Positions 6,259 through 61,901 of a DNA stretch of 64,000 bases are shown here, piece by piece. Each line of letters opens with the position of its first letter. The stretch's first letter is position 1. The DNA lies in IMG/VR virus record IMGVR_UViG_3300032235_000911, positions 1 to 64,000 of that record; one strand, written 5' to 3'. The translations under genes and the position numbers were made by a program. Below the pieces are notes generated by a model. That model had not been told where the DNA came from, did no database searches, and worked only from the letters and a program-made list of their open reading frames with translations. This DNA is from a virus.

Positions 6259-9200
6259 CTATACCTGAATGCTGGCGAAGTTTTCACGCTTCTCAATATT
6301 GATCTGCATGTCCACAGCATCTTTTAATATATCTAGATGCGAGATTAAAAAAACAACCTTAAAATATCCTTTGATAATATCAAGAATGCGGATAAACCCT
6401 GCAAGATTATCGGCATCAAGCGAAGTTCCAGGCTCGTCCATGATGAAAAAGTCGCTTCTTGGGAGACTGGACACGGTTAGTAGTGCTAATCTGATCGCGA
6501 TTGAGGCAAGGCTCTTCTCGCTGCCGCTGCCCATTTCAAGTGGGCGTGGATCGTATTTGGGGTGTTTGATCATAATATCAAGTTTGTCGTCGTCATTCAC
6601 CAAAAATACTTGAAAGTCAACGATATTTGTTAATATTTTGTTTATTTCGCTGTTGATAACAGGAAGTTTATTTTTGATAACCTGATACGAGATACCGTTT
6701 GGATGCATTGCCTTCAAGTAGAGATCATATGCGGCAAATTGACGGCGTTTTTCAAGAAGTTCTAACTTCTGTTCTTCAAGAGTTTCAAGACGACTGGTCT
6801 GATAGCCGCTGTCGCGGTAAACCGTTGTGATTTCTTGGTTTAATGAGTTTAGTTTCATTTCAAGATTGTGAGTCTTAACCTTATAGCCTGCTTCCCTGAT
6901 GATTAGATCTTCAAGTTCGGCGCTTTCTTCCTTGCGCTTGTTCATTTCGTCAACTTGCGCTTGATATTTTGCGATTTCTTGCTTGTTGTCGGCAAGTTTT
7001 ACATTGTGCTTTTCGATTGTAAGTTGAATATTTTTTTCTTCAAGAGCAATCTTTTGTAGTAGTGATTGTGCGCTGTTCCACTTGGCAATACGGTCTTCGA
7101 GATTGAGTGCCCGTAATGGCGCTATTTCGGCCTCTAAACCCTCTACCTTGACTCCCAACTTGGCCCACTTGATCTCGTGTTCTGGGCGTTCTGCTGACGC
7201 TTCGTGGGCGTCCTTGATAAACTTACAGCTGGTGTATTGATTGCCGCAAGGTACGCCTTCAAGAAGACCAATGCGCTTCTCGATAGCGGCAGACTTCTGG
7301 CTATCAAGCCGGTATTGCGCTTCAAGTTCAGAAAGACTCTTTGTTAGTGAGTCAAGTTTATTTTTTTGTTCAAGCAATGACGCAATATCCTCAGTTACTT
7401 CAACATTCTTGCGCTTTTCGTCTAACTGATTTAGTTTGGTATTGCCTTCACGGATCCATTGCTCGTATGTAGACTTTGACGCTTGTAGTGAAGAAAGGCG
7501 GATTACTGAATCCGACATGTCTGGCCGGTTTACTTGGATAGCATAAATCTTTGACTGTGTTTGCAGTAGATCATTGCGCGCTTCTTGTAATTCGCCGTTT
7601 AGGTCTGTTATTTGTTCTTTTGATTGACGGATTGCAACTTCGGCAGTCTTGATAGTTTCTTTTGTTTTTTCGATTTCCGCGTCAAAATCAGTATCGTCAT
7701 GTTTTTTTAGATACGCTTTTACTTCGGCAGCATCACTCTTTGCGAGTTTAAACTTACTTTCAAAAATATCAAGATCAAGGAACTTAGCAAGAATGGTCTT
7801 GCGGTTCGTGCTGCCTTCGTTGATAAATGCAAGGCTATCGAGTTGGCTTGCCATGCTGGTTAGAAGGAAGTCGTCAACAGAACCCACATATCTACGGATA
7901 ATCTTGTCAGTATCGCTACGGTCCAAACCAGTAAGAAGTTCTTCATTTTCGGTGGTGAATTCAACATCAGTCTTGGCCTCAACGGTTTCTACACCCTTGC
8001 TTTTTTTGGTATACTTTGCGGAGTTTCGCTCAACTACATATTCATTGCCGTCAATATCAATAGTGAGTTTTCCACGACCCTTCTCACGATTTTGATTAAT
8101 AATATTTAGGTTCTTACGATTGTTCTTTGAAGTTGTGTTGAATACTGTATAGAGCAGTGAATCAAGAAAACTGGTCTTGCCTTCACCGTTCTTGCCAAGG
8201 ATACCAACAACGCCGCGAAGTTTAGAAAAGTCTACACGGTTACCTTCGCCGTAGTTAAATAGGTTATCCCACTCAAAGTCTTTAACTGACCATGTCACAT
8301 TGCGGGCAACATCTTCGCTCTGCTCAACCTCAACAGAATATTTTTTATTCATGTTGTAGATTTTTTCAAGAGTTTCGTTGTCGGGATTGTAATCCTTTAG
8401 GAACTCGCGAATCATTTCCTCTTGGACATCGGTCGTGCGTAAGTTGAGTGTCTTTGAGAGATTTGAAACTTCTTCAAGTGTTTCTTTGTTTGTAATGCTC
8501 TTGTTGACATAGGTAACGCTCTCTGGCTTGTAGCGAGCCTTTACCGCGTCAATAGCAGACTTTACTTTATCAATAGATAGGCTGAAATCTGAGATAAGTC
8601 GGATTCTTGCGCCCTTTGGTAGCACAGGTTCGCTTGCAAGAGAGCCGTCGATCCACAGTGGAATACTGGCGAATGGTTTTGGGTTTGGGATTTTGACGCT
8701 ATCAACATGGAACTTTTCTTTGTCTTCGATATGCCAGATAAGAAAACCCTTGTCATCGGTTTCACCAAAGTTTTGTTGGATTGTGCTACCGGCGTAGCGC
8801 ATACGCCCTTCGTCGTCTACTTTTTGGTTTGTAAGGTGGATATCGCCAAGCAGGGCATAGTCGTGACCTTCAAAGATCTCAACGCTATCGTCGCCGTGTT
8901 CAATAACATAGCCGGTATCAGTCATTACCCCACGAATAGAGCCGTGATATAATGCAATATTTATTTTATTTGCGTCACTTGGCGCACACCAGTTTTCTTT
9001 ATCAAAGATACTCAATACATTTAGTACAGTATTGTTTCCAATATCGTATTGGCCGCTTTTGTAAAGATAGTGAATGCGTTTGCTCTCAATAGCCTCAACG
9101 ATTGGGCTAATGGAATCAAGGCGGCGGTTGTTGCGTAGGTTAGTATCGTGATTACCGGCAATAATATATGTTGGAGCAATATCGCCAAGGTTTTTTAAAA

Positions 9201-9390
9201 AATCAACAGCAAGGCTTACTGCTTCCGGCGTTAGTTGTAACTTGCTATGAAATAGATCGCCTGTATGGACAATGTAATCTACCCCTTCTTCCTTGCAGCG
9301 TTCATATATCTTACTAAATACTTCTCTGTATTCGTCGTGACGCTTAGTGAGCAAAATGTGGGTGTCGCTTATGTGTGCAATCTTGGGCAT
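6259..9390 (-). CDS. Fused Mre11/SbcD phosphoesterase + Rad50/SbcC SMC ATPase (gp47-gp46-like recombination nuclease)
   Basis: N-terminal metallophosphoesterase motifs ISDTH, TGDLFH, AGNHD, LYHG and LGDIH; then Walker A GKNGEGKT, long coiled coil with central Cys pair, signature GSGSEK, Walker B FIMDEP and H-loop ISH; RBS GGAGG. Confidence 0.93.
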   Translation of the reverse strand: MPKIAHISDTHILLTKRHDEYREVFSKIYERCKEEGVDYIVHTGDLFHSKLQLTPEAVSLAVDFLKNLGDIAPTYIIAGNHDTNLRNNRRLDSISPIVEAIESKRIHYLYKSGQYDIGNNTVLNVLSIFDKENWCAPSDANKINIALYHGSIRGVMTDTGYVIEHGDDSVEIFEGHDYALLGDIHLTNQKVDDEGRMRYAGSTIQQNFGETDDKGFLIWHIEDKEKFHVDSVKIPNPKPFASIPLWIDGSLASEPVLPKGARIRLISDFSLSIDKVKSAIDAVKARYKPESVTYVNKSITNKETLEEVSNLSKTLNLRTTDVQEEMIREFLKDYNPDNETLEKIYNMNKKYSVEVEQSEDVARNVTWSVKDFEWDNLFNYGEGNRVDFSKLRGVVGILGKNGEGKTSFLDSLLYTVFNTTSKNNRKNLNIINQNREKGRGKLTIDIDGNEYVVERNSAKYTKKSKGVETVEAKTDVEFTTENEELLTGLDRSDTDKIIRRYVGSVDDFLLTSMASQLDSLAFINEGSTNRKTILAKFLDLDIFESKFKLAKSDAAEVKAYLKKHDDTDFDAEIEKTKETIKTAEVAIRQSKEQITDLNGELQEARNDLLQTQSKIYAIQVNRPDMSDSVIRLSSLQASKSTYEQWIREGNTKLNQLDEKRKNVEVTEDIASLLEQKNKLDSLTKSLSELEAQYRLDSQKSAAIEKRIGLLEGVPCGNQYTSCKFIKDAHEASAERPEHEIKWAKLGVKVEGLEAEIAPLRALNLEDRIAKWNSAQSLLQKIALEEKNIQLTIEKHNVKLADNKQEIAKYQAQVDEMNKRKEESAELEDLIIREAGYKVKTHNLEMKLNSLNQEITTVYRDSGYQTSRLETLEEQKLELLEKRRQFAAYDLYLKAMHPNGISYQVIKNKLPVINSEINKILTNIVDFQVFLVNDDDKLDIMIKHPKYDPRPLEMGSGSEKSLASIAIRLALLTVSSLPRSDFFIMDEPGTSLDADNLAGFIRILDIIKGYFKVVFLISHLDILKDAVDMQINIEKRENFASIQV

Positions 9391-9670: not shown

Positions 9671-10609
9671 TTAGATACTCATTATTTTGTTAATAAGCAA
9701 GTGGTCTGTATTCTTGATTGGTTGTGCTGCTAACTTGCGCTTCAAGAATTCTTCTTTGCTCATTTCACCAACATCTTTATATGGCTTGATTTCTACTTTA
9801 TAGATTTCGATTCCATATTTAAGTAGTGACTCGATTAGGATATTTGCTTTTTTTTCTGCGTCTGGGTCAAGTGCTATGTAAATGGCTGGGTCATGGCGGA
9901 TAATCTGCTTGAACAGTTTGCTATCTTCACGAAGCGTCGATCCAAGCAGTGGAATACTATTCTCCACCTTGATTGCGTCAAAAACCCCCTCAACAAGGAC
10001 AATATCACTTTCCCAATCAACCATTAGTTCATTAAATACAATATCCTTGCTCTCTGGTGGGTTCGTATACTTCTTCCAGTTGCCGGTAAATGTACGAGCA
10101 ACAAAATAGTTGCACTCACCGGCTGAACTAAACGATGGAGCAATGATACGACCCTCGTATTCACCACTTCCGGCATAACCAAGTTTCCAGCGAAGGATGT
10201 CTTGCCTGTCAATACCCCGTTTACTTAGGTAGTTTAGTGCTGCGTTGGCTGTTAGGCTAAACTCTCGATTGCAAAGTGAGACAAACTCTGCTGGGAGTTC
10301 TACAACTTGCTCTTTTTCTTCTACAACAGTGTTGTCAGATAACAGGATTTTTTCAAAATCGCTTACTTCAACCTGACCAGTAAGTTCTTTCCAGGTATGT
10401 TGCTGAAGAAATGTACCAAAACGCTTTACAAGCCGGGAAACAGGGCCAGCAGCGTCACAAATCCAGCATTTATACTTGTCCTTGACAAGATTTACGCTAA
10501 GTTTCTTTTTGTGGTGGCTACACCATTTGCAAAAAAACAAATATTCATTTCCGCTGCGTTGACAACTGCCTAAGATTTCTGCTACGATGTCGAGTTTTGA
10601 TTTTGACAC
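9671..10609 (-). CDS. DNA primase (DnaG/T4 gp61-like, zinc finger + TOPRIM)
   Basis: Zn finger CKWC...H...CWIC, YLSKRGI, TOPRIM motifs VEGVFDAI and ALDPDA. Confidence 0.88.
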   Translation of the reverse strand: MSKSKLDIVAEILGSCQRSGNEYLFFCKWCSHHKKKLSVNLVKDKYKCWICDAAGPVSRLVKRFGTFLQQHTWKELTGQVEVSDFEKILLSDNTVVEEKEQVVELPAEFVSLCNREFSLTANAALNYLSKRGIDRQDILRWKLGYAGSGEYEGRIIAPSFSSAGECNYFVARTFTGNWKKYTNPPESKDIVFNELMVDWESDIVLVEGVFDAIKVENSIPLLGSTLREDSKLFKQIIRHDPAIYIALDPDAEKKANILIESLLKYGIEIYKVEIKPYKDVGEMSKEEFLKRKLAAQPIKNTDHLLINKIMSI

Positions 10610-11115
10610 AGTAAGTACCCTGCTTTCGCGATAGTTAGGCTATCGGCACGGTCGAAGGAACCCTGAACTGGGTTATCGAACTTGGTGTACTGTACCGTAA
10701 ACTGTGGCTCGTTGTCAAGCCAGTGCTTTAGAGTTATTTCTTTTGCATCCCCACCCTTTGGAACATTTATTCCGACCATTTTTCGTGCTTGACGGCAGGC
10801 TATATACTGTGGTCTAATAGAGAAGATTTCGTAGCACATCCAGGAAAGTATACCATTAAACCGGTTGAGGGTCATAATCGTATGCGCACTACTCTTGCCT
10901 TTGCTCATTACATTAAGGGTTTCTTCTATGAATATCTTAGTTATACTGTATTTGTTTTTTATAGTACTTAGTAGTTCTTTGGCTGCTACGCTCTTATCAA
11001 GAAAGTCTGTGTATTTATCTTTGCGGAGATCAAGCATTCCGCATTCTACTATTGTAGTGCCATCAAGAATGGTGTATCCTGTTATGGAAGTACTGATATC
11101 AAGTCCTAAAATCAT
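10582..11115 (-). CDS. RuvC-like Holliday junction resolvase
   Basis: N-terminal ILGLDISTSITG, IFIEE and C-terminal DRADS acidic motifs of the RuvC/RNase H fold. Confidence 0.8.
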   Translation of the reverse strand: MILGLDISTSITGYTILDGTTIVECGMLDLRKDKYTDFLDKSVAAKELLSTIKNKYSITKIFIEETLNVMSKGKSSAHTIMTLNRFNGILSWMCYEIFSIRPQYIACRQARKMVGINVPKGGDAKEITLKHWLDNEPQFTVQYTKFDNPVQGSFDRADSLTIAKAGYLLCQNQNSTS

Positions 11116-11810: not shown

Positions 11811-11817
11811 TAAATAG
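11811..11817 (-). promoter_or_regulatory. Putative phage late promoter motif CTATTTA
   Basis: GACTATTTATA upstream of RBS AAGGA and ATG 11789; one of ten intergenic CTAWWTA copies. Confidence 0.6.
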
Positions 11818-29433: not shown

Positions 29434-29440
29434 TAAATAG
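29434..29440 (-). promoter_or_regulatory. Putative phage late promoter motif CTATTTA
   Basis: GCACTATTTATAG upstream of RBS AAGGA and ATG 29412. Confidence 0.6.
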
Positions 29441-33716: not shown

Positions 33717-33723
33717 TAAATAG
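33717..33723 (-). promoter_or_regulatory. Putative phage late promoter motif CTATTTA within a short inverted repeat
   Basis: CTTCTA-TTTA-TAGAAG (33711-33726) upstream of RBS CAGGA and ATG 33689. Confidence 0.6.
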
Positions 33724-49713: not shown

Positions 49714-49720
49714 TAAATAG
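49714..49720 (-). promoter_or_regulatory. Putative phage late promoter motif CTATTTA
   Basis: GCTATTTATTATTGACATG; 8 nt before the ATG with no SD between. Confidence 0.55.
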
Positions 49721-59372: not shown

Positions 59373-59681
59373 TTATTTCTCTTTTATCATATCAAAGAGA
59401 TTTGATTTTTCCATCTCTGACATTCCACGATCAGTGCTGCCTTCATTTTTTTGAATGATGCCGGCTATCTTAACAAGCTGCTCGTTGCTACGCTGGAGTG
59501 TTTCAAGATACTGTGATGCGATATGTCCGCTTGCAGCGTGAGCGGCATCGCCTGTTTTTTTCATATAAACAACAAGATCGGCCAACAGCATTTCTGCAGT
59601 TGACCGATCATCTTCTATGTTCTTGATGCTTGATTCTATTATATCATTCAGGCTGCGCTTGGTCTTGGACATTTTCTTCAT
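59373..59681 (-). CDS. Small helical hypothetical protein (possible terminase small subunit)
   Basis: 102 aa, two long amphipathic helices, YLETLQRSNEQLVKIA. Confidence 0.65.
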   Translation of the reverse strand: MKKMSKTKRSLNDIIESSIKNIEDDRSTAEMLLADLVVYMKKTGDAAHAASGHIASQYLETLQRSNEQLVKIAGIIQKNEGSTDRGMSEMEKSNLFDMIKEK

Positions 59682-60720
59682 CCTTTAAGTGGGTCACGGA
59701 CCCACGATTCCATTTATTGATGAAGTAATTATACCTTGTTTTAAATTTTTTCAGTCCAGATACGATTTGCTTAGTTGTTAATCCAGTTAATTCCCGCAAA
59801 TATAAATAAACAGCCTTTTTATTAAAGATTTGTATGTCATCTTGGTTTTTTAATATTATTTTAATAGCCTCATAGACCTTGCGTTCGTTACCTTTTAGAG
59901 AAAGTTGGTCCCATTCATCCATTTCTTGCCATAAAGCTTTCCAAAATTCTTCTTTTTCACGTTCTTCATCGTAGCCGTTTGTTGTAAATAGATGCTCTTC
60001 TTCAAATTCCTGGGTAATGTCGTCAAGGCTTACCTCTCGTCCGCTGCTGTGTTTCTTAACCTTGTGAATGAACCAGTTTTTTGTGATAACAGAGAAATAG
60101 GAGAATGCCTTGCTGCCCTTACTTGTATCAAACTTATCAAGAATCGTTGTAAGCCAGGTCTTGCATTCGTCTTTTAAATCTTCTATGTTGGGTAGACTTG
60201 TGAACTTATAGGTGTAAACAATCTTATCAACCATTTCATTGAATGCTGGCTGGATAAGTGTTATATAAAGTATGCTTTTTTCATTACGATCCGTGCTGCT
60301 TGCATACTTTACGATTGCTTCTTCGTGCAGTTTGGTGAAATATTGATTCTTTTTTACCTCTTCTTTAGCCGGTAGGGACGACTCTACGATAACGACCGGC
60401 TTCTTGGGAGACTTTTTGACCTTCGGGGAGGCGAATGACGCCTTTGGTGGACGCCCCCTGCGCTTCATCAACGTAACCTTCGGTTTCGCCGTCTTCTTCA
60501 CTATCTTCTTCGCTGTCCGCGTAGCCTTCAAACTGGGCTTTGATTTTACTTTGGACTTGGGCTTTGCCTTGGTAGATACTGTTCGCTTCAAGGCCCGTTT
60601 CGTCTTGGGTTTGGCCTTGACTGCCTTCTTCTTGGATGGTGACGCCTTTCGCAAACTCTTGCGCGGCTTCGATAACGAAATTTGTTTCTTGGATCGCCCT
60701 TTTGATGCTTTCTTCGCCAT
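59644..60720 (-). CDS. Late-transcription sigma factor (T4 gp55-like) with a histone-H1-like/AT-hook N-terminal extension
   Basis: Sigma region-2-like EDLKDECKTWLTTILDKFDTSKGSKAFSYFSVITKNWF; C-terminal HTH LRELTGLTTKQI. N-terminal 110 aa are K/A/P/S-rich with KRRGRPPK and SPKK. Alternative start at ATG 60468. Confidence 0.8.
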   Translation of the reverse strand: MAKKASKGRSKKQISLSKPRKSLRKASPSKKKAVKAKPKTKRALKRTVSTKAKPKSKVKSKPSLKATRTAKKIVKKTAKPKVTLMKRRGRPPKASFASPKVKKSPKKPVVIVESSLPAKEEVKKNQYFTKLHEEAIVKYASSTDRNEKSILYITLIQPAFNEMVDKIVYTYKFTSLPNIEDLKDECKTWLTTILDKFDTSKGSKAFSYFSVITKNWFIHKVKKHSSGREVSLDDITQEFEEEHLFTTNGYDEEREKEEFWKALWQEMDEWDQLSLKGNERKVYEAIKIILKNQDDIQIFNKKAVYLYLRELTGLTTKQIVSGLKKFKTRYNYFINKWNRGSVTHLKDEENVQDQAQPE

Positions 60721-60892
60721 GAAATTCTTCCAATGTATATAAATTTTTGAGTGATTCGCTATACTCTTCTAACATTATAGCGAATTCCTTACGAACTTCA
60801 GCATCATACCAGAAACGCAGAAGTAGTTTACGAATATACCATATAAATAGGATATTTACAGAGAAAGATAAGACTAACAGTAAATAAATCAT
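60365..60892 (-). CDS. Single-TM membrane protein with an acidic tail overlapping the sigma gene
   Basis: N-terminal TM helix MIYLLLVLSFSVNILFIWYI, helical core, E/D/G/Q-rich tail; ATGA overlap with the upstream gene. Confidence 0.7.
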   Translation of the reverse strand: MIYLLLVLSFSVNILFIWYIRKLLLRFWYDAEVRKEFAIMLEEYSESLKNLYTLEEFHGEESIKRAIQETNFVIEAAQEFAKGVTIQEEGSQGQTQDETGLEANSIYQGKAQVQSKIKAQFEGYADSEEDSEEDGETEGYVDEAQGASTKGVIRLPEGQKVSQEAGRYRRVVPTG

Positions 60893-61140
60893 GGGGTATA
60901 GTCCTTTCGACTACTTTGCTTGTCCGCTTCCAATACTTCGCGGCTTTCTTCTATGAACTTTTCTACCCTTTGACCAGCAGAAGTTTCTTTTTTAGTATCT
61001 TCTCGCCAGTTGAGAGTAGGAATAACCTTTGAAACTTCAATGGATTGGCAGCGTGGGCATGGACCGCCCGCTTCCTCTGCGCCATGAAAGGTCTTGTACG
61101 AGCCTTTGCATGGCTTACAGTAATACTCATAGAAAGGCAC
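60889..61140 (-). CDS. FmdB-family zinc-ribbon protein
   Basis: MPFYEYYCKPC...CPRCQS.EVSKVI; GTG start with RBS GGAG. Confidence 0.8.
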   Translation of the reverse strand: MPFYEYYCKPCKGSYKTFHGAEEAGGPCPRCQSIEVSKVIPTLNWREDTKKETSAGQRVEKFIEESREVLEADKQSSRKDYTP

Positions 61141-61894: not shown

Positions 61895-61901
61895 TAAATA
61901 G
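61895..61901 (-). promoter_or_regulatory. Putative phage late promoter motif CTATTTA for the HNH gene
   Basis: TTTCTATTTAATTAAAGGAG upstream of ATG 61876. Confidence 0.55.

Follow-up and report, generated by a model that had tools for sequence, protein, structure and literature searches.

A basic N-terminal arm of a phage sigma factor is probably overprinted on the acidic tail of a neighboring membrane-protein gene

A phage sigma-factor gene and the membrane-protein gene upstream of it very probably share 356 nucleotides (nt) of DNA in two maintained reading frames. The genes lie in the window, the whole 64,000-nt stretch analyzed here (positions 1 to 64,000 of virus record IMGVR_UViG_3300032235_000911), and all genes of the locus are on the minus strand. 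The sigma-factor open reading frame (ORF; 59644-60720, -) encodes 358 amino acids (aa) from an ATG at its upstream end. The membrane-protein ORF (60365-60892, -) encodes 175 aa, comprising an N-terminal hydrophobic helix, a conserved helical region, a variable acidic stretch and a conserved C-terminal end. The shared stretch (60365-60720, -) holds sigma codons 1-118 and, in another frame, membrane-protein codons 58-175. Sigma residues 1-124 (60349-60720, -) form a basic arm that is 38% K+R and about 40% S/T/P/A, and is predicted to be disordered. From codon 58 onward, the membrane protein carries 24 D/E against 12 K/R.

The shared stretch stands out by base composition. Its GC content is 51.4%; the 5' part of the membrane gene has 29.7%, the sigma core 36.1% and the window 37.7%. 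Sense-strand T falls to 14% from 27% in the window. The overlap and the GC step, both reported in an initial annotation of this DNA, were thus reproduced.

Dual coding in the overlap

Stop-codon statistics indicate that neither frame is open by accident. We resampled the overlap by fixing the residues of one frame and drawing synonymous codons with the genome's own codon usage, in the window and in L162, a 162-kb IMG/VR relative in which a 334-aa sigma ORF, beginning in the same ATG context, shares 239 nt with a membrane ORF of 136 aa. With sigma residues fixed, the membrane frame should contain 10.5 stops in the window and 7.3-8.9 in L162, and no resample left the frame open (0/20000 and 0/5000). 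With membrane residues fixed, 4.1-4.6 and 3.4-4.2 stops are expected in the sigma frame, which stayed open in 0.3-0.5% and 0.04-0.8% of resamples, respectively. The observed number is zero in either coding frame of both sequences. As a control, the third sense frame of the window overlap contains 8 stops, against 8.5 expected.

Codon choice in each frame is unusual in ways that preserve its partner. Membrane-frame NTN codons ending in A or G, 46% of such codons genome-wide, are absent from the overlap (0/20 in the window, 0/15 in L162; p 5e-6 and 1e-4), and hydrophobic codons of this frame avoid these endings even where no stop would arise. T is never the last base of sigma-frame codons standing before AA, AG or GA (0/40 in the window and 0/31 in L162, where 34% would match the genome-wide share; p 5e-8 and 2e-6). 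Among the same membrane-frame NTN codons, C and T endings number 14:6 in the window and 12:3 in L162, with 28% C genome-wide (p 1e-4 and 4e-5); a C ending puts Ser, rather than Phe or Leu, into the sigma frame. This preference for C over T argues that the sigma frame is read. These partner-preserving choices account for both the GC step and the T depletion of the overlap.

By-products of composition were set aside. A plus-strand ORF of 112 aa (60404-60742, +) spans the overlap and has a 124-aa counterpart in L162 (9490-9864, -); we rejected it as a gene because the sense strand is T-poor and the codon-aligned antisense frame stays open in 91% of sigma-codon shuffles, which makes it a passive by-product. 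No tandem repeats were found in the overlap, so a recent repeat expansion is not visible. The arm as a passive shadow of a GAA-rich frame was likewise rejected, on the codon choices above and on charge biases that reach outside the overlap (below).

Conservation of the membrane-protein tail bears on the opposite possibility, that only the sigma arm functions and the membrane protein effectively ends around residue 85-100, its tail being untranslated or functionless read-through. The membrane proteins of distant relatives, at just 85-130 aa, would fit this. Against it stand the 10.5 expected stops of which none is present, the complete failure of resampling to open the membrane frame, and five relatives (P0122-P0126, 61-84% identity) that keep the full tail, with a variable acidic middle bearing insertions and deletions, the same stop and a nearly invariant C-terminal end. 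That end is a 23-residue motif, IRLPEGQKVSQEAGRYRRVVPTG (60368-60436, -), which the sigma frame reads as arm and which remains recognizable in L162. Its differences between the window and L162 fall 5/5/12 at membrane-frame codon positions 1/2/3, as expected of substitutions that track the membrane frame. The arm-only reading, already disfavored, is therefore very improbable. At this motif the membrane frame dominates, with the sigma frame keeping its basic character only.

Taken together, we hold with high confidence that both frames of 60365-60720 are maintained and that the dual coding is real. The initial annotation had preferred true dual coding to a passive frame shadow, and resampling, codon choice and charge outside the overlap all side with it.

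A charged junction across the family

The overlap belongs to a widespread gene cassette. Sigma homologues fall into 6718 homologous protein clusters in metagenomes and are very common in marine and freshwater samples. We surveyed 160 fetched loci at 55-65% identity and found the order zinc ribbon, membrane protein, sigma factor and ~100-aa protein kept across them, with a zinc ribbon found at 110 loci, a membrane-protein homologue upstream at 79 and a homologue of the window's 102-aa protein at 156. At nearly all loci the sigma N-terminal end is a short K/R-rich patch of 5-30 residues, and an acidic tail closes the membrane protein. At these loci the overlap between the two genes measures 8-100 nt and keeps one relative frame; its median over about 160 loci is 32 nt.

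Both charge biases extend beyond the shared bases. At 70 distant loci, D+E make up 30% of the 25 membrane-protein residues that immediately precede the overlap, compared with 11% in the proteome. In 26 of these 70 loci the sigma protein has at least 5 residues beyond the membrane stop, and there K+R make up 60%, again compared with 11%. Because each bias extends outside the overlap, neither is the frame shadow of the other, and by this sequence evidence the acidic tail and the basic N-terminal end appear to be independently selected. The two frames are compatible because GAA read one base later gives AAG.

The long arm appears to be a clade-specific expansion of this junction. Seven predicted proteins with 53-72% identity to the window sigma (P0001, P0007, P0018, P0029, P0045, P0046 and P0061) have arms of 87-147 residues, and these seven and L162 all have an open arm that starts MAKK or MATK, so that the basic frame is retained in all eight. 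L162 shares 77% identity with the window over the sigma core and 39% over the membrane protein. An intermediate group (L089, L004, L040 and L096) has arms of 62-68 residues, 27-34 of them overlapped, and the non-overlapped parts (28-40 residues) are still 22-31% K+R. Arms of about 60-150 codons seem, from these comparisons, to mark a mainly freshwater clade.

A marine subgroup (L062, L134, L144, L149 and L158) carries a different conserved membrane C-terminal end after the acidic stretch, EENVFY-A/G-GSRxR, and its membrane ORFs run past the start of the sigma core alignment (coreStart-TMend -53). This looks like a second, independent route to a longer overlap. Five further distant relatives (L195-L199) are contigs placed in metagenome-assembled genomes labelled Flavobacteriales, Woesearchaeota, Bacteroidota, Legionellales and Actinomycetes; they are probably mis-binned phage contigs that hold no usable host signal. 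Collection scans for DNA of the close clade yielded L162 alone; L161 and L163-L194, considered as close relatives, were discarded as chance matches.

The sigma-factor core

Profile and structural searches converge on a sigma factor. The ORF matches phrog_234, 'late sigma transcription factor', weakly (E 2.4e-4, with residues 134-276 aligned to positions 18-162 of the 181 in the profile), as well as the NCBIfam sigma-70 models NF009196 (E 6e-4) and TIGR02937 (E 3e-3), both far below their cut-offs. Pfam Sigma70_r2 gives weak matches in 17 of 111 family members, the best at E 5e-4. No region-4 match turned up among the curated profiles searched, and a profile search of the Protein Data Bank (PDB) with the sigma alignment found nothing, T4 gp55 included.

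An AlphaFold (AF2) model built on 111 homologues gave clearer answers. It has a confident helical core at residues 130-340 (about 230 aa in the core as a whole), and Foldseek with this model returned weak matches (E 0.06-1), almost all of them sigma factors. Residues 126-226 (60043-60345, -) form a sigma-2-like domain with predicted local confidence (pLDDT) above 90; in a VIA-align comparison with 48161 chains, its top match is T4 gp55 (7d7d_F; Z score 10.9, root-mean-square deviation 2.5 A, 97 of 137 residues). Residues 250-340 (59701-59973, -) form a sigma-4-like helical domain whose structural matches are sigma region 4 and -35-binding domains (2h27_D, Z 5.7; 3hug_A, Z 5.5; 5fgm_A, Z 5.3), scores that are modest for helical folds. 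Full-length sigma factors align over both core domains (8x6g_H, Z 10.6; 8i24_F, Z 8.7).

On the model, the 358-aa protein is a sigma factor with a gp55-like sigma-2 domain and a sigma-4-like domain. The weak profile match and the gp55 fold match uphold its initial assignment as a phage sigma factor. The T4 rule cited there for gp55, with a single promoter element, gp33 and a clamp, is not simply transferable because this core carries an extra sigma-4-like domain.

The basic arm and its start

The arm is a long polycation. Its first 110 codons encode 36 K and 9 R, 45 in total, and no D/E, and its first 118 residues include a single D/E. AKPK occurs at residues 36, 52 and 78, SPSKK at 27, SPKVKK at 98 and SPKK at 104, and an AT-hook-like KRRGRPPK occupies residues 86-93 (60442-60465, -). 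These counts and motifs agree to the number with those first listed for the ORF. AF2 models residues 1-125 at a pLDDT of about 50 without secondary structure. Histone-H1-like basic tails are a compositional class, not a homologous family, and the arm has their composition, being long, disordered, rich in K/A/P/S and almost free of acidic residues; the recurrent S/TPKK of such tails is not a feature of the arm across relatives.

We propose the following course of events and function. In the four-gene cassette of a large uncultured aquatic phage family, sigma has in every relative a basic N-terminal end that overlaps, out of frame, the membrane protein's acidic C-terminal tail. In the clade of the window, which is mainly freshwater, the sigma frame would have been opened far upstream, to an ATG within the EEF-H/Y-G motif of the membrane protein. 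The result would be a disordered polycation of about 90-150 residues (124 here), 118 codons of which are dual-coded, made as a long form from ATG 60720 and possibly also as a short form from 60468. The arm might then serve as a sequence-unspecific DNA tether or sled that holds the holoenzyme on phage DNA and aids promoter search, doing the job of the T4 sliding clamp, which is seemingly absent in this lineage. We rate this proposal as a whole slightly above an even chance, and the tether by itself somewhat below one.

Several observations weigh against the proposal. DNA binding is suggested only by composition, and a tether by analogy to H1 tails, HMGA/CarD and the WhiB7 AT-hook. The motifs offer it little: the window protein is the sole match to the AT_hook profile (PF02178) among 111 family members, and S/TPKK, present three times in the window arm, occurs 0-1 times per arm in 11 relatives. 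At IRLPEGQKVSQEAGRYRRVVPTG substitutions do not track the sigma frame, and at the N-terminal end of the arm the conservation of MAKK...SKR is inseparable from that of the helical domain which the same bases encode in the membrane protein. The DNA comparison within the close clade rests on one relative, L162. The part of sigma upstream of the internal start would, taken alone, be open by chance with p 0.03 in the window and 0.02 in L162, which is moderate. Finally, many near relatives carry M, GTG or TTG a few codons at most from an SRKT site near the membrane stop; a start there is the family norm, so the short form could be the main product.

The motif results also undercut an earlier argument that selection acts on discrete AT-hook and SPKK motifs. 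KRRGRPPK has the R-G-R-P core and misses the AT_hook threshold, at 14.4 against 17.4 bits. RGRP occurs in the arms of P0001 and P0034, 2 of 11 relatives tallied (3 of 12 with the window), and lies downstream of the membrane C-terminal motif in P0034 and upstream of it in the window, so the positions are non-homologous. Selection on such motifs was not borne out, with the AT-hook below threshold in its one family member and S/TPKK nearly absent from relatives, and this weakens the specific H1/AT-hook motif reading. A fast-evolving, disordered polycationic region describes the arm better than an array of conserved motifs does.

Two starts are plausible, as the initial annotation had it, judged by their Shine-Dalgarno (SD) sequences and by the start-codon patterns of relatives. 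The upstream ATG (60718-60720, -), within the EEF-H/Y-G motif, follows GGAAG (60727-60731) at a 6-nt spacer. The internal in-frame ATG at codon 85 (60466-60468, -), a candidate short-isoform start, follows AAGGT (60476-60480) at a 7-nt spacer. Both SD forms occur upstream of other genes in this genome, AAGGT commonly.

Translation of the short form only, from ATG 60468 or nearby, would leave some 40 residues of arm, in keeping with the rest of the family; the 84 upstream codons would then be open only because a hydrophilic, T-poor membrane tail rarely creates stops there. The familial 5-30-residue basic N-terminal end starting near the membrane stop, about 18 near relatives with M just before the SRKT site (others have GTG or TTG), the common SD form ahead of 60468 and the unexceptional chance openness of the upstream part (3% in the window, 2% in L162) all speak for this reading. 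It must reckon with window and L162 DNA that is open to the same ATG, seven more predicted proteins from that ATG, and the lack of any internal ATG in L162. Avoidance of A/G endings where no stop threatens, along with the preference for C, is also hard to explain if the frame is unread. We regard exclusive production of the short form as unlikely, if still a serious contender, and translation of the long form from ATG 60720 as fairly probable; two isoforms, the short one from 60468, are quite possible.

Possible partners of the arm

Replication genes of relatives bear on whether the arm could stand in for a clamp. T4 has a family-B DNA polymerase, whereas Pfam profiles identify a family-A polymerase in the four complete relatives of the window phage and find no family-B polymerase there. 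Neither a gp45-type clamp (PF09116) nor beta-clamp domain 3 (PF02768) was found in these four genomes, the gp45 profiles being run without a positive control, and in G000 itself, 49% complete, PF09116 and PF02916 gave no match, again with Pfam profiles that had no positive control. Given a family-A polymerase, no family-B polymerase and no detected clamp domain, a T4-style clamp-coupled mechanism looks unlikely here, and the idea that the arm replaces a clamp gains some indirect support. In the complete relatives G002-G005 (185-191 kb), the family-A polymerase appears as two matching stretches in one frame of about 400-430 aa, and a family-A-only polymerase is unusual for a genome of this size with a T4-like terminase.

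The membrane protein itself offers another partner. The arm could be real yet pair with the membrane protein's acidic tail instead of with DNA, and the tail would then serve as an anti-sigma factor or timer anchored in the membrane; RNA, polyphosphate or acidic lipids are further candidate partners under the same reading. Opposite charges and adjacency are kept in about 160 loci, each bias reaching outside the overlap. By the positive-inside rule, positive residues flanking a helix face the cytoplasm, and positive residues come after the hydrophobic helix of this protein, so its tail should be cytoplasmic. Membrane-bound anti-sigma factors encoded beside their sigma genes are, according to PMC8999054, a standard arrangement. 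Yet the conserved part of the membrane protein matched no known anti-sigma fold or family among Pfam, PHROG and NCBIfam profiles, and electrostatic pairing of two disordered tails would be unspecific. We consider a non-DNA partner, all candidates combined, improbable. Slightly less probable still is a combination of the two ideas, in which the acidic membrane tail would be a DNA mimic that holds the sigma arm at the membrane, as a built-in anti-sigma factor or timer, until release, after which the arm would slide on phage DNA clamp-free. DNA remains the partner that we favor for the arm, and we judge a tether function plausible by analogy.

Neighboring genes and a candidate promoter

The remaining cassette genes are compactly arranged. 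Upstream, an 83-aa zinc-ribbon gene (60889-61140, -; Pfam Zn_ribbon_8 E 7e-8, TIGR02605 E 1e-7) ends in a stop that overlaps the membrane-gene ATG as ATGA. Downstream, a conserved 102-aa gene (59373-59681, -) overlaps the sigma 3' end by 38 nt; its counterpart in L162 lies at 10485-10778. AF2 predicts a helical hairpin for the 102-aa protein, and its C-terminal end, GLSxxDKxxLFD(L/M)I, recurs throughout 119 distinct homologues taken from 156 loci. The LFDMI-type end resembles the clamp-binding peptides of T4-like phages. Searches gave the protein no gp33 match or other specific sequence or fold match, and generic hairpins were the only matches in the PDB.

A heptamer near start codons is a candidate promoter. 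Overall, the bare 7-mer CTATTTA shows no enrichment in the window, where 24 copies stand against an expectation of 21.7. The coding strand carries 18 of them, and 5 of these lie 15-34 nt upstream of start codons (binomial p 7e-4), at 61895-61901, 49714-49720, 33717-33723, 29434-29440 and 11811-11817, all on the minus strand. These copies mostly take the form CTATTTAT directly ahead of the SD, as upstream of 61876, 33689, 29412 and 11789. CTATTTAT/CTATTTA may be the single-element promoter of this sigma factor.

Elsewhere in the window, a 1043-aa ORF (6259-9390, -) matches SbcD-like (residues 1-473) and SbcC-like (269-1040) nuclease subunit families, and looks like an SbcD/SbcC fusion.

Discussion

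The locus combines two known kinds of thing, a phage sigma factor and an out-of-frame gene overlap. In our literature search we found no description of a sigma factor with a long H1-like polycation fused to it, and we know of no extracytoplasmic function (ECF) sigma factor with a long polycationic N-terminal arm. Nearest to the core is T4 gp55 (7d7d chain F; phrog_234), its best structural match over the sigma-2-like domain and a weak profile match. Both are phage-encoded sigma factors, and here the gene adjoins structural and baseplate genes. They differ in layout: gp55 is a single domain of about 185 aa without sigma-4, whereas the window sigma adds a sigma-4-like domain and a 124-residue basic arm and lacks the hydrophobic clamp-binding C-terminal end of gp55. 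T4 late transcription needs gp55, gp33 and gp45 (PMC6024815).

In domain layout, the protein resembles two-domain (group 4 or ECF-like) sigma-70 factors, which share the sigma-2 plus sigma-4 arrangement; SigB, SigI, sigma-32, sigma-28 and sigma-E align over both of its domains. Its sequence matches to this group stay below curated cut-offs, however, and the neighboring membrane protein has no recognized anti-sigma domain. A primary sigma factor offers a parallel to the arm: PMC10011835 describes a disordered N-terminal portion of it that is missing in solved structures and needed for function; that portion differs in composition, involves no gene overlap and shares no common descent with the window arm.

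For the arm itself, the closest likenesses are compositional. They are to the DNA tethers of WhiB7, which combines an AT-hook with sigma-A binding, of Myxococcus CarD, which is HMGA-like, and of the histone H1 C-terminal domain. The arm is likewise disordered and K/R/P/A/S-rich, has one canonical R-G-R-P core and, as part of a sigma factor, connects to RNA polymerase, which it could plausibly hold on AT-rich DNA. In the window, by contrast, the tail is fused to the sigma factor itself and its AT-hook is single, below threshold and unconserved. We found no homology of the arm to H1, HMGA or CarD.

As an overlap, the locus resembles the lambda Rz/Rz1 and phiX174 overprinted genes, which are conserved out-of-frame overlapping genes. 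In each, one strand is read in two frames for more than 100 codons, with conservation of both products. The window case differs in being an N-terminal extension over the C-terminal tail of a neighbor, rather than an embedded gene, and its products are charge mirror images, in which E-rich GAA becomes K-rich AAG. The closest cultured relative that we found is Flavobacterium phage vB_FspM_immuto (Immutovirus; 33% identity in the sigma homologue), which has the same order of genes: a 97-aa membrane protein (coding sequence 924-1217), sigma (1198-1896) and a protein of about 116 aa, all three annotated as hypothetical proteins. There the overlap is 20 nt and sigma begins MAKPKNK, a basic N-terminal end that is short by comparison.

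The overprinting reading is thus supported and extends to a family-wide principle. Overlaps of 8-100 nt, 239 nt and 356 nt form a graded series that suggests how an N-terminal extension arises by overprinting: extension is possible when the neighbor's frame is already compositionally compatible, and both frames then stay constrained. If tail and arm are partners, one DNA stretch would encode a regulator and its target surface, co-evolving through the GAA/AAG register. If instead RNA polymerase is held on DNA by the arm, the phage would have a clamp-free solution to what gp45 does for T4, and the role of DNA tethering in the recognition of weak promoters would become directly testable.

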